From Escherichia coli (GTDB taxonomy: Bacteria > Pseudomonadota > Gammaproteobacteria > Enterobacterales > Enterobacteriaceae), in the NCBI RefSeq assembly GCF_001677475.2, contig NZ_CP015229.1: a DNA stretch of 64,000 nucleotides; one strand, written 5' to 3'. Below, piece by piece: positions 10,169 to 49,736 of the stretch. How positions within the stretch are numbered: the first letter of the stretch is position 1; every line of letters begins with the position of its first letter. The position numbers and the translations under genes were made by a program. The notes below the pieces were generated by a model. That model searched no databases. It had not been told where the DNA came from and saw only the letters and a list, made by a program, of their open reading frames with translations.

Positions 10169-11602
10169 CTATTTCAAGCGATAGTAAAGCTCACGGTACG
10201 ACTTCGCCGCGACCTGCCAGCTAAAATCCATTGCCATAGCCTGACGTTGCACAAACCGCCACAGTGAAGGACGGGACCACAGTACAAAAGCACGTCGAAT
10301 AGCCCGTAACAGCGACCAGGCATTACTATCTTCAAAGACAAACCCACTGGCGACGCCATCTGCAAGGTTCTCAAGAGAACAGTCAGAAACCGTATCAGCA
10401 AGCCCACCGGTGCGCCGCACTAACGGCAGCGTACCGTACTTCAATCCATAAAGTTGCGTTAAGCCGCACGGTTCAAAACGGCTGGGCACCAGAATGACGT
10501 CCGCGCCGCCCATAATGCGATGCGAAAATGCTTCGTGATAGCCAATCTGAACGCCCACCTGGCCGGGGTATTCCGCTGCCGCCGCAAGGAAACCTTCCTG
10601 CAGCACCGGATCGCCCGCGCCGAGTAGCGCCAACTGCCCGCCCTGCTCCAGAAGACCCGGTAAGGCTTCCAGCACCAGGTCGAGACCTTTCTGGCTGGTC
10701 AGACGGCTCACCACTGCAAAAAGCGGCACTTTATCGTCAACCTTAAGCCCCATTGCGATTTGTAACTGGCGCTTATTTTCCGCTTTATCTTCCAACGTAT
10801 CGCGGGTGTAGCGCGAGGCCAACAGTAAGTCCGTCTCTGGACTCCAGATTTTCTCGTCCACGCCGTTCAGTACGCCTGAAAGACGCCCTTCACGGTGACG
10901 CTGTTGCAACAGACCTTCCATACCGTAGGCAAACTGCGGTTCGGTGATCTCGCGAGCGTAGGTTGGACTGACCGCCGTAATGTGATCGGCATAGTACAGA
11001 CCGGCCTTCAGGAAAGAGATTTGTCCGTTGAATTCCAGCCCATGAATATTAAAGAATGACCATGGCAATTGGATGTCATTCATATGATGTGCATAAAACA
11101 TGCCTTGATAGGCCAGGTTGTGCACAGTAAACACCGACTTCGCCGGACGCCCGCGCGCCGCCAGATACGCAGGCGCAAGGCCTGCATGCCAGTCGTGCGC
11201 ATGCACCACATCAGGACGCCAGAATGGGTCAAGACCGCTGGCCATTTCTGCCCCAACCCACCCCAGCAGCGCAAAACGCAATACGTTGTCGGTATAGGCA
11301 AATAAGTTGGTATCGTGATACGGGCTTCCCGGACGATCATAGAGATGCGGCGCGTCAATCAGGTAAATGCCAACCCCGTTGTAATGACCGAACAACAGCG
11401 TGATATGTCCGGCGAAGGTATCACGACGGGATACTACCTGCGCATCGGTCACGCCACGGCGAATATCGGGAAATGCAGGCAACAGTACGCGAGCGTCAAC
11501 GCCGTCTGCGATTTGTGCTGCGGGTAATGCCCCAATAACATCAGCCAGACCGCCGGTTTTAAGCAGCGGGAACATCTCTGAACATACATGTAAAACCTGC
11601 AT
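10169..11602 (-). CDS. glgA: Glycogen synthase GlgA (ADP-glucose transglucosylase)
   Basis: 477-aa ORF; N-terminal KTGGLADV motif. Confidence 0.95.
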
Positions 11603-46350: not shown

Positions 46351-46490
46351 CTTTATCCCTCATCGGAAAATGCGGAAATAAGCATACCCTGCCAGTTATG
46401 GTGTTGTCATCCGTCCACCCTCGCCACTAAACTGGAAGCAAGACCGTAGGCATTCCGCTTACGAAAAAATAACGAATTCAAGGAACTAAG

Positions 46491-47117
46491 ATGCTTTGGT
46501 CGTTTATCGCTGTCTGTCTTTCCGCATGGCTATCTGTGGATGCATCGTATCGTGGGCCAACCTGGCAACGCTGGGTGTTTAAACCGTTAACCCTTCTTCT
46601 CCTGCTGTTACTGGCCTGGCAAGCGCCGATGTTCGACGCCATTAGCTATCTGGTGCTGGCAGGGCTGTGCGCCTCACTGCTGGGCGATGCGCTAACCCTG
46701 TTGCCACGTCAACGTCTGATGTACGCCATCGGCGCGTTTTTCCTCTCGCACCTGCTGTACACCATCTATTTCGCCAGTCAGATGACGCTCTCTTTCTTCT
46801 GGCCTCTGCCACTGGTGTTGCTGGTTCTGGGTGCGCTGTTACTGGCGATTATCTGGACGCGGCTGGAAGAGTACCGTTGGCCTATCTGCACGTTTATCGG
46901 CATGACGCTGGTGATGGTGTGGCTGGCAGGTGAACTTTGGTTCTTCCGTCCGACCGCTCCGGCGCTCTCTGCGTTTGTTGGCGCTTCATTGCTGTTTATC
47001 AGTAACTTTGTCTGGCTGGGTAGCCACTATCGCCGCCGCTTCCGGGCAGATAACGCGATTGCTGCGGCCTGCTACTTTGCCGGTCATTTCCTCATCGTCC
47101 GCTCGCTGTATCTCTGA
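46491..47117 (+). CDS. yhhN: YhhN-family inner-membrane protein
   Basis: 208-aa polytopic ORF upstream of zntA. Confidence 0.85.
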
Positions 47118-47124
47118 TAAAACT

Positions 47125-47156
47125 TGACTCTGGAGTCGACTCCAGAGTGTATCCTT
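47125..47156 (+). promoter_or_regulatory. zntA promoter with ZntR (MerR-family) operator
   Basis: -35 ttgact and -10-like tatcct separated by about 20 bp, spanning a perfect 22-bp palindrome actctggagtcgactccagagt. Confidence 0.65.
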
Positions 47157-47190
47157 CGGTTAATGAGAAAAAACTTAACCGGAGGATGCC

Positions 47191-49389
47191 ATGTCGACTC
47201 CTGACAATCACGGCAAGAAAGCCCCTCAATTTGCTGCGTTCAAACCGCTAACCACGGTACAGAACGCCAACGACTGTTGCTGCGACGGCGCATGTTCCAG
47301 CACGCCAACTCTCTCTGAAAACGTCTCCGGCACCCGCTATAGCTGGAAAGTCAGCGGCATGGACTGCGCCGCCTGTGCGCGCAAGGTAGAAAATGCCGTG
47401 CGCCAGCTTGCAGGCGTGAATCAGGTGCAGGTACTGTTCGCCACCGAAAAACTGGTGGTTGATGCCGACAATGACATCCGTGCACAAGTTGAATCTGCGG
47501 TGCAAAGAGCAGGCTATTCCCTGCGCGATGAACAGGCTACCGACGAACCACAAGCATCACGCCTGAAAGAGAATCTGCCGCTGATTACGCTAATCGTGAT
47601 GATGGCAATCAGCTGGGGTCTGGAGCAGTTCAATCATCCGTTCGGTCAACTGGCGTTTATCGCGACCACGCTGGTTGGGCTGTACCCAATTGCTCGTCAG
47701 GCATTACGGCTGATCAAATCCGGCAGTTACTTCGCCATTGAAACCTTAATGAGCATAGCCGCTATTGGTGCGCTGTTTATTGGCGCAACGGCTGAAGCTG
47801 CGATGGTGTTGCTGCTGTTTTTGATTGGTGAACGACTGGAAGGCTGGGCCGCCAGCCGTGCGCGTCAGGGCGTTAGCGCGTTAATGGCGCTGAAACCGGA
47901 AACCGCCACGCGCCTGCGTAACGGTGAGCGTGAAGAGGTGGCGATTAACAGCCTGCGCCCTGGCGATGTGATTGAAGTCGCCGCAGGTGGACGTTTGCCT
48001 GCCGACGGTAAACTGCTCTCACCGTTTGCCAGTTTTGATGAAAGCGCCCTGACCGGCGAATCCATTCCGGTGGAGCGCGCGACGGGCGATAAAGTTCCTG
48101 CAGGAGCCACCAGCGTAGACCGTCTGGTAACGCTGGAAGTGCTGTCAGAACCGGGTGCCAGCGCCATTGACCGGATTCTGAAACTGATCGAAGAAGCCGA
48201 AGAGCGTCGCGCCCCCATTGAGCGGTTTATCGACCGTTTCAGCCGTATCTACACGCCCGCGATTATGGCCGTCGCCCTGCTGGTAACGCTGGTGCCGCCG
48301 CTGCTGTTTGCCGCCAGCTGGCAAGAGTGGATTTATAAAGGGCTGACGCTGCTGCTGATTGGTTGCCCGTGTGCGTTAGTTATCTCAACGCCTGCGGCGA
48401 TAACCTCCGGGCTGGCAGCAGCAGCGCGTCGTGGGGCGTTGATTAAAGGCGGTGCGGCGCTGGAACAACTAGGTCGTGTTACCCAAGTGGCGTTTGATAA
48501 AACCGGTACGCTGACCGTCGGTAAACCGCGCGTTACCGCGATTCATCCGGCAACGGGTATTAGTGAATCTGAACTGCTGACACTGGCGGCGGCGGTCGAG
48601 CAAGGCGCGACGCATCCACTGGCGCAAGCCATCGTACGCGAAGCACAGGTTGCTGAACTCGCCATTCCCACCGCCGAATCACAGCGGGCGCTGGTCGGGT
48701 CTGGCATTGAAGCGCAGGTTAACGGTGAGCGCGTGTTGATATGCGCTGCCGGGAAACATCCCGCTGATGCATTTGCTGGTTTGATTAATGAACTGGAAAG
48801 CGCCGGGCAAACAGTAGTGCTGGTAGTACGTAACGATGACGTGCTGGGTATCATTGCATTGCAGGATACTCTGCGCGCCGATGCTGCAACTGCCATCAGT
48901 GAACTGAACGCGCTGGGCGTCAAAGGGGTGATCCTCACCGGCGATAATCCACGCGCAGCGGCGGCAATTGCCGGGGAGTTGGGGCTGGAGTTTAAAGCGG
49001 GCCTGTTGCCGGAAGATAAAGTCAAAGCGGTGACCGAGCTGAATCAACATGCGCCGCTGGCGATGGTCGGTGACGGTATTAACGACGCGCCAGCGATGAA
49101 AGCCGCCGCTATTGGGATTGCAATGGGCAGTGGCACAGACGTGGCCCTGGAAACCGCCGACGCAGCATTAACCCATAACCACCTGCGCGGCCTGGTGCAA
49201 ATGATTGAACTGGCACGCGCCACTCACGCCAATATCCGCCAGAACATCACCATTGCGCTGGGGCTGAAAGGCGTTTTCCTCGTCACCACACTTTTAGGGA
49301 TGACCGGCCTGTGGCTGGCGGTGCTGGCAGATACGGGTGCGACGGTGCTGGTAACAGCGAATGCGTTAAGATTGTTGCGCAGGAGATAA
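47191..49389 (+). CDS. zntA: Zn(II)/Cd(II)/Pb(II)-translocating P-type ATPase ZntA
   Basis: 732-aa ORF; N-terminal metal-binding GMDCAAC, CPC motif, DKTGTLT phosphorylation site, GDGINDAP. Confidence 0.95.
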   Translation: MSTPDNHGKKAPQFAAFKPLTTVQNANDCCCDGACSSTPTLSENVSGTRYSWKVSGMDCAACARKVENAVRQLAGVNQVQVLFATEKLVVDADNDIRAQVESAVQRAGYSLRDEQATDEPQASRLKENLPLITLIVMMAISWGLEQFNHPFGQLAFIATTLVGLYPIARQALRLIKSGSYFAIETLMSIAAIGALFIGATAEAAMVLLLFLIGERLEGWAASRARQGVSALMALKPETATRLRNGEREEVAINSLRPGDVIEVAAGGRLPADGKLLSPFASFDESALTGESIPVERATGDKVPAGATSVDRLVTLEVLSEPGASAIDRILKLIEEAEERRAPIERFIDRFSRIYTPAIMAVALLVTLVPPLLFAASWQEWIYKGLTLLLIGCPCALVISTPAAITSGLAAAARRGALIKGGAALEQLGRVTQVAFDKTGTLTVGKPRVTAIHPATGISESELLTLAAAVEQGATHPLAQAIVREAQVAELAIPTAESQRALVGSGIEAQVNGERVLICAAGKHPADAFAGLINELESAGQTVVLVVRNDDVLGIIALQDTLRADAATAISELNALGVKGVILTGDNPRAAAAIAGELGLEFKAGLLPEDKVKAVTELNQHAPLAMVGDGINDAPAMKAAAIGIAMGSGTDVALETADAALTHNHLRGLVQMIELARATHANIRQNITIALGLKGVFLVTTLLGMTGLWLAVLADTGATVLVTANALRLLRRR

Positions 49390-49395
49390 GGCAAA

Positions 49396-49423
49396 CCGAT
49401 CGCAACATTGAGCGCGATCGGTC
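49396..49423 (+). terminator. Hairpin immediately downstream of zntA
   Basis: Perfect 9-bp stem accgatcgc/gcgatcggt with about 10-nt loop; no strong U-tract, so terminator function is uncertain. Confidence 0.35.
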
Positions 49424-49462
49424 CCCTCGCTCCTCTGGGGAGAGGGTTAGGGTGAGGGGAAA
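49421..49462. repeat. GC-rich ~42-bp interspersed palindromic repeat, copy 2 (inverted; between zntA and tusA)
   Basis: gtcccctcgctcctctggggagagggttagggtgagggga; reverse complement nearly identical to the copy at 39205-39245. Confidence 0.5.
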
Positions 49463-49490
49463 AGGCGGCATCGAAGCCAATCAGCCCCCA

Positions 49491-49736
49491 TCAACCGCCT
49501 TTGCGAATCAAATAACGATAAGGCAGTCCATCCGTCTCTTTAGCAACCAGTTCGTGTTCCATAAAGGTACAAAACCCAGGAATATCGCGGGTAGTGGCCG
49601 GATCGTCGGCGATAATCAGCAACGTTTCGCCAGGCTGCATATTGCGCACGGTTTTGCGCACCATCATCACCGGTTCCGGGCAGCGCAGGCCAAGCGCGTC
49701 GAGTGTGTGGTCAGGGCTGGAAAAGAGATCGGTCAT
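49491..49736 (-). CDS. tusA: Sulfur-carrier protein TusA
   Basis: 81-aa ORF with the CPxP active-site motif ([12 protein letters not shown]). Confidence 0.95.

Follow-up and report, generated by a model that had tools for sequence, protein, structure and literature searches.

The stretch of Escherichia DNA analysed here (the window, 64,000 nucleotides in all) carries, between yhhN and zntA, a perfect palindrome set between two promoter-like hexamers. The locus raises the question of what this palindrome is for: whether it serves as the operator of the metal-responsive regulator ZntR, as an RNA hairpin of the yhhN transcript or as the site of another regulator, and whether the short leader between the promoter and zntA has a part of its own in the control of the gene.

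Architecture and setting of the zntA promoter

By direct reading, a -35-like hexamer, TTGACT, was found at 47124-47129 and a -10-like hexamer, TATCCT, at 47150-47155, both on the + strand and separated by the spacer CTGGAGTCGACTCCAGAGTG (47130-47149, +), whose counted length is exactly 20 bp. The whole stretch runs ...TGATAAAAC TTGACT CTGGAGTCGACTCCAGAGTG TATCCT TCGGTTAATGAGAAAAAACTTAACCGGAGGATGCC ATG.... The original prediction had given a separation of about 20 bp, which the count makes exact, and had placed the element at 47125-47156, one base too high (+1), the element being 47124-47155. The perfect 22-bp palindrome that it described is present at 47127-47148 as ACTCTGGAGTC followed directly by GACTCCAGAGT (together ACTCTGGAGTCGACTCCAGAGT), 11+11 nt with 0 nt between the arms and 100% complementarity, the dyad centre falling between 47137 and 47138. 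The further claim that the spacer is itself a perfect inverted repeat holds nearly, the palindrome covering most of the spacer, but its 5' end takes in the last 3 nt of the -35 hexamer and its 3' end stops 2 nt (TG) short of the -10. The features of the locus are as follows.

46491..47117, + strand: yhhN, the upstream gene (ORF list; RefSeq annotation of the matching region)
47124..47129, + strand: -35 hexamer TTGACT of PzntA (sequence; the same as the hexamer published for PzntA; kept in 106 of the 107 listed zntA-linked loci)
47127..47148, unstranded: ZntR operator, a perfect 22-bp palindrome (symmetry; identity to the published ZntR consensus; unique in the window)
47130..47149, + strand: 20-bp spacer (counted; 20 bp kept in 102 of the 107 listed orthologous promoters)
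47150..47155, + strand: -10 hexamer TATCCT (sequence)
47150..47188, + strand: leader inverted repeat with arms TATCCTTCGGTTAA and TTAACCGGAGGATG (repeat search; RNA folding; cross-genus conservation)
47162, + strand: predicted transcription start, an A 7 nt after the -10 hexamer (from sigma-70 geometry)
47181..47185, + strand: Shine-Dalgarno (SD) sequence GGAGG of zntA, 5 nt before the ATG (sequence)
47191..49389, + strand: zntA, Zn(II)/Cd(II)/Pb(II)-translocating P-type ATPase, the regulated gene (ORF list; NF033775; RefSeq)
47193..47205, + strand: coding copy of the operator right half and centre (repeat search; GTCGACTCCTGAC against GTCGACTCCAGAG, 11/13)

MerR-type promoters are marked by hexamers 19-20 bp apart, as against 17 +/- 1, and by a dyad operator that lies between the hexamers and overlaps the region of both. 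Here the separation is 20 bp, and the operator at 47127-47148 matches the ZntR site ACTCTGGAGTCGACTCCAGAGT in 22/22 positions. A standard promoter scan, which allows spacers of 16-18 bp, did not report PzntA, as expected because the spacer is over-long. When the standard sigma-70 geometry is applied to the -10 hexamer at 47150-47155, transcription is predicted to start near 47162, which would place the operator centre at about -24.5.

The open reading frame downstream (47191-49389) was identified as ZntA by the NCBIfam model NF033775, with a score of 1449 bits against a cutoff of 1240 over the full length (1-732), which bears out the gene named in the prediction; its ATG comes 36 nt downstream of the -10 hexamer. 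The gene before it, yhhN, has the same orientation, and its stop codon ends 6 nt before the -35 hexamer; a terminator scan gave nothing terminator-like on the + strand in the interval from yhhN to zntA. In RefSeq, the corresponding region of E. coli reads yhhN-zntA-tusA. The gene for the regulator is not a neighbour: tblastn found no zntR or ZntR-like gene in the 64-kb window (best E = 2.4), and zntR of K-12 lies at 3,438,705-3,439,130, about 168 kb from the zntA site.

Over the 181 bp that surround the element, E. coli K-12 MG1655 differs by two substitutions, both inside yhhN, and the yhhN-zntA intergenic region is 100% identical; a window position plus 3,559,260 gives the position in NC_000913.3. 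The surroundings of the element were also compared more widely. Among 5,426 complete E. coli genomes, the best match to window positions 46400-49500 is 98.3% identical over 3.1 kb and comes from a soil and leaf-litter isolate, and the window ZntA is 97.5% identical to that of the Escherichia whittamii representative (L083) and 96.4% to that of the E. coli representative (L034). The window is therefore not from K-12; nevertheless, it shares the whole yhhN-zntA intergenic sequence with K-12, while the surrounding genes are about 2% off the best E. coli match.

ZntR and related metal-sensing systems are well described. The published ZntR site consensus is the same 22-mer with a 20-bp spacer, letter-identical to the window sequence, and zntR is as a rule unlinked to zntA and does not regulate itself (Permina et al. 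2006, PMC1526738). The -35 hexamer TTGACT is common to PzntA, PmerT and PpbrA, and the ZntR promoter is the exception of the family in that its spacer has 20 bp and not 19 (Hobman et al. 2012, PMC3431237). According to the same source, MerR, CueR and ZntR protect the -35, the spacer and the -10 from DNase I (PMC3431237, citing Brocklehurst 1999 and Outten 1999). With titrated ZntR, PzntA was weakly repressed when zinc was low and activated about 10-fold when it was high; a stronger promoter carrying the ZntR site was no longer activated, and a site moved downstream of a promoter became a pure repressor site (2022, PMC9189660). By fluorescence anisotropy, the Salmonella ZntR dimer binds the zntA operator-promoter. 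The spacer length is disputed, being given as 20 bp (PMC1526738, PMC3431237) or 19 bp (PMC9189660); the count from TTGACT to TATCCT here is 20. The predicted assignment to a MerR-type promoter under ZntR control thus finds agreement in the K-12-identical intergenic region, the published consensus, the reported protection and the zinc-dependent reporter switch. The reading as a MerR-type promoter that ZntR activates by distorting the DNA is supported and was known before; for the binding of ZntR, its dependence on zinc and the distortion itself, the source is the literature. The supplements of the SMRT-Cappable-seq and Cappable-seq studies contain no entry for zntA, yhhN or the expected coordinates.

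The mechanism, the textbook one for such promoters (DNA distortion reviewed in PMC9909328) and almost certainly the one at work here, would run as follows. A homodimer of ZntR, a member of the MerR family, would bind the 22-bp palindrome between and partly over the hexamers. With 20 bp instead of about 17, the hexamers would be out of phase and too distant for RNA polymerase, so that PzntA would be weak, and apo-ZntR would repress it slightly. Binding of Zn(II), and also of Cd(II) or Pb(II), by ZntR would then kink and under-wind the operator, and the distorted spacer, shortened and re-phased, would allow the -35 and the -10 to be contacted together, raising transcription of the exporter. In the literature on this class (a review, and reporter and spacer-swap experiments with PzntA), promoters whose spacer has been shortened are described as constitutive.

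Three known systems serve for comparison. PzntA with its ZntR operator in E. coli K-12 is identical to the element, with the same 22-mer, -35, -10 and 20-bp spacer. PmerT under MerR (Tn501, Tn21), the founding MerR-type promoter, shares TTGACT and the dyad operator in an over-long spacer, as well as a regulator that stays bound and turns from repressor to activator on metal binding via DNA distortion; it differs in its 19-bp spacer (20 in PzntA), in its operator sequence and metal, and in that merR adjoins its target divergently whereas zntR is unlinked. The CueR promoters PcopA and PcueO of E. coli belong to the same family and share the mechanism, but have a 19-bp spacer, a specificity for Cu(I)/Ag(I)/Au(I) and another operator sequence. 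CueR structures are the best models for the action of ZntR, and the CueR-DNA and CueR-RNA polymerase complexes 4WLW, 6LDI and 6XH7 can stand as proxies; no ZntR-DNA complex was found in the PDB, where the ZntR entry 1Q08 is without the DNA-binding domain.

Conservation of the element and the competing readings

Within E. coli the element is nearly universal. A 121-nt query around it was found once per genome in 5,424 out of 5,426 complete genomes, and in 5,342 of the 5,425 records that matched, the best place had an identity of at least 99%. Across species, one genome for each of 100,044 species was scanned with the pattern CTCTGGAGTNNACTCCAGAG, and at least 120 loci were found; the cross-species figures given below hold among the matches listed. 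Conservation of the operator core in this set is there by construction, as 18 of its bases were fixed in the pattern, and the independent positions are TTGA at the flank, the two bases at the centre, the final 2 nt of the spacer and the -10 hexamer.

A ZntA homologue was found downstream in the correct orientation, about 43-330 nt away, in 107 of the 120 loci among the matches listed. TTGACT, whose first four bases lay outside the search pattern, is kept in all but one of these 107 zntA-linked loci, and TAnnnT stands at exactly 20 bp in 102. The hexamers 20 bp downstream in the listed loci are led by TATCCT (29) and TATGCT (21), followed by TAGGAT (11), TAGCAT (10) and TAACAT (8); in the other genera listed T1, A2 and T6 of the -10 are constant and positions 3-5 drift. 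TG forms the last two spacer bases in most listed loci, and GGAGG or a 4/5 variant of it is present in nearly all orthologous leaders among the matches listed. The flanks upstream of the -35 and downstream of the -10 are unconserved between the listed genera. Seen species-wide, TTGACT, the exact 20 bp and T1, A2 and T6 of the -10 are fixed across Enterobacterales in the listed loci, while the surroundings drift.

The other 13 listed loci had no detected ZntA. Five of them precede a merR-family gene, and in most of the rest the contig or the locus breaks off; a single locus, L094, has no promoter context. In the five, the operator core with TTGACT stands directly before the merR-family gene (L004 102-121, L041 11438-11457, L051 4496-4515, L063 5559-5578 and L011 3868-3887), in metagenome-assembled genomes (MAGs) labelled Acidobacteria, Bryobacterales and Gemmatimonadetes. 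TAnnnT lies at 20 bp in 4/5, and the Gemmatimonadetes locus L011 reads AGTGTG there. Their layout is presumably regulator-first and autoregulated, unlike that of the unlinked E. coli zntR.

The proximity of yhhN invites another reading, in which the palindrome acts mainly as RNA, closing the yhhN transcript with a 3' hairpin that serves as a terminator or stabiliser, with the promoter context incidental. The palindrome begins 10 nt past the yhhN stop codon and folds as RNA into a 9-bp stem with a 4-nt loop (-14.9 kcal/mol), and in 83 of the 89 listed loci with enough flank a YhhN homologue in the same orientation ends no more than 400 nt before it. The terminator scan does flag the palindrome, but on the - strand only, where a T-rich tail follows; on the + strand, on which yhhN is transcribed, no T-run comes after it. 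The - strand candidate (47127-47148 with a tail to about 47117, CAAGTTTTAT) was rejected because no gene is transcribed towards the palindrome on that strand, and is regarded as an artefact of the palindrome and the A-rich yhhN-proximal flank. Terminator stems drift with compensatory changes, whereas the sequence of this palindrome is invariant across the listed genera and is conserved alongside a -35 and a -10 at fixed spacing. Furthermore, six listed loci keep the operator without yhhN upstream, the five distant MAGs carry it before merR-family genes, and binding of ZntR has been published. It is therefore very improbable that the palindrome is mainly a yhhN hairpin, although, judging from its predicted fold, it may in addition form an RNA hairpin with a minor function in read-through transcripts.

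Even less probable is a reading in which the operator is used mainly by another MerR-family regulator, be it CadR/PbrR-like or a CueR paralogue. The promoter layout is common to the metal sensors of this family, and the merR-family genes behind the same core in the Acidobacteria, Bryobacterales and Gemmatimonadetes MAGs are of unassigned specificity. E. coli K-12 is not known to have CadR or PbrR, and CueR sites are 19-bp-spacer operators of a sequence unlike that of the ZntR operator. Footprinting and genetics in the literature assign the E. coli site to ZntR, and the CueR targets named in a review are copA and cueO, not zntA (PMC9909328).

A chance co-occurrence of palindrome and hexamers with no regulatory role is already refuted by the conservation data: a palindrome of at least 22 bp was reached in 7 of 200 first-order Markov simulations of the 64-kb window, but the combined architecture in 0 of 300, and the site is identical to a characterised operator and kept in more than 100 species beside the same gene. 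The palindrome is the sole perfect one longer than 14 bp in the 64 kb. Since 7/200 simulated windows reached its length, it is by itself only moderately unlikely, suggestive but not compelling. Within the window there is a single occurrence of the combined pattern, in which TTGACN and TAnnnT stand 19-20 bp apart and enclose a perfect palindrome of 14 bp or more. No second match of the 22-mer at up to 3 mismatches was found in the window, and none in 100 shuffles. With its architecture, K-12 identity, downstream gene and cross-genus conservation of the promoter-defining positions all observed here, the element is almost certainly PzntA, the sigma-70 promoter of zntA with a built-in ZntR operator.

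The inverted repeat of the zntA leader

Downstream of the operator, a second and longer inverted repeat links the promoter to the start of the gene. One arm, UAUCCUUCGGUUAA (47150-47163), runs from the -10 hexamer to the predicted start, and the other, UUAACCGGAGGAUG (47175-47188), holds the SD sequence GGAGG; as RNA the two pair over 14 bp around a loop at 47164-47174. The segment 47150-47193 folds with -17.6 kcal/mol. A read-through RNA spanning 47115-47223, from the yhhN stop to ATG+30, reaches -42.5 kcal/mol (z = -6.9 against dinucleotide shuffles) and is predicted to form two hairpins, that of the operator and the leader stem. The RNA from the predicted start, without the 5' arm, has z = -0.1.

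The same layout recurs in other genera with different sequences. In Pluralibacter UAAGCUUCCGG pairs with CCGGAAGCUG, and in Klebsiella CGGGUAAUGA pairs with UCAUUACCCG; the stems of Erwiniaceae leaders are rich in GC, but their outer pairs still involve the final bases of the -10 and end beside the SD. In an alignment of 55 Enterobacteriaceae leaders from the listed loci, 85.7% of cells are paired as against 32-55% with the partners slid, and changes on both sides occur in 8/16 pairs, a number that 0/500 shuffles reach; these counts used a structure from single-sequence folds of member sequences, and the sequences are related, which makes them weaker evidence than a consensus. RNAalifold predicted no consensus structure on the 55-leader alignment. 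The pairing appears to be conserved across genera with compensatory changes, as far as the aligned sequences can indicate.

The dependence of the fold on the bases before the start was evaluated by permuting the 12 pre-start nucleotides. The median z was -3.5, and in 67 of the 92 distinct listed leaders no more than 5% of the permutations were as stable as the real sequence. In 54 of these 92, at least three SD bases are paired with pre-start bases in the minimum-energy fold, a count that depends on the predicted position of the start. In the Escherichia/Citrobacter/Salmonella/Klebsiella group, the predicted probability of an unpaired SD is 0.00 in the read-through RNA and 0.2-0.7 in the RNA from the predicted start. 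Over all listed loci the difference is modest, with medians of 0.15 for read-through versus 0.24 from the start, the latter being higher in 72 of 105. The 5' arm would lie upstream of the gene's own start and the 3' arm over the SD, in a fold-back arrangement that depends on where the start is placed.

Such fold-backs are known from insertion sequences. The classical case, said to go back to Davis, Simons and Kleckner in 1985, is the IS10 transposase gene, which is reportedly shielded from outside transcription by an RNA fold-back. The zntA leader resembles IS10 and IS200 in having a 5' arm upstream of its own start and a 3' arm over the ribosome binding site, so that outside transcripts alone carry both. 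The transposase gene of IS200 offers a further likeness with its two successive hairpins, one acting against impinging transcription and one sequestering the SD. The differences are that zntA is a chromosomal housekeeping gene rather than a transposase gene, that its 5' arm includes the gene's own -10 hexamer, and that the arrangement is predicted here from sequence and folding.

The folding predictions suggest that the hairpin forms only in RNA that starts upstream of PzntA and that yhhN read-through transcripts would consequently be untranslated for zntA. A transcript reading through from the unterminated yhhN would contain the two arms and hide the ribosome binding site, with the operator palindrome forming a second hairpin upstream, whereas transcripts from PzntA would begin inside the 5' arm and leave the ribosome binding site free. 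A fold-back insulation model can be proposed on this basis, though rather tentatively and with the odds against it, in which the zntA promoter and leader are built in such a way that only ZntR-initiated transcripts are translatable. Such a design would put a constraint on the -10 element at the RNA level, which could explain its non-consensus CC. In the searchable literature, no description of a zntA leader hairpin or of yhhN read-through was found, and the leader hairpin may be new. An array study in Y. pestis treated yhhN-zntA as one unit and grouped it with the Fur regulon.

Two other explanations of the leader were considered and rejected. An Rfam scan of 46900-47400 with E up to 10 returned only sub-threshold miRNA precursors (mir-1179 with 20 bits and MIR851 with 15 bits, at gathering thresholds of 80 and 90), and these matches, at 47129-47204, reflect the long, imperfectly matched inverted repeat that stretches from the operator as far as codon 5 rather than a known RNA family. 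The AT-rich leader core TAATGAGAAAATTATCATTA is found in many Enterobacteriaceae (listed leaders L002-L121, for example L106 at 10463-10509; window 47160-47180) and bears a superficial likeness to a Fur box; part of it has been lost from the leader of E. coli. As a Fur box the core is weak: its best matches to the 19-mer consensus mostly score 10-12/19, and 11/19 in the window leader, whereas shuffled sequences average 9.1 with maxima of 12-13.

The half-site copy in zntA and the meaning of the locus

The right half of the operator together with its centre is repeated on the same strand within codons 1-5 of zntA, where GTCGACTCCTGAC (47193-47205) agrees with GTCGACTCCAGAG in 11/13 positions. 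The copy reaches 12-13/13 in 20 of 102 distinct listed loci, always at ATG+2, while a control segment of the gene never exceeds 8/13. Copies of 13/13 include those of L030, L037, L069 and L092, and a variant centre is found in L062, L087 and L105; in Buttiauxella, the operator centre is CA, not CG, and the coding copy carries the same variant. Several origins are possible. The copy may stem from conservation of the N-terminal peptide MSTPE together with common descent, or it may be a putative second ZntR half-site, to judge from its sequence. At the RNA level, it may provide a CUCC that would pair with the SD in the mRNA, or a segment complementary enough to pair with the left half of the operator in read-through RNA. 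It may also be part of the fold-back design.

PzntA is the output stage of a metal sensor that ranks among the most sensitive known and is a standard part in biosensors for zinc, cadmium and lead, and the boundaries of the PzntA fragments used in reporters decide whether the hairpin is present. The ZntR site in this Escherichia window is a rediscovery with nothing new in it, and only the leader hairpin and the coding half-site copy are possibly worth an experiment. If the fold-back is true, control of a metal exporter would be enforced at translation as well as at transcription, and zntA would be a chromosomal counterpart of the fold-back protection of IS10 and IS200.
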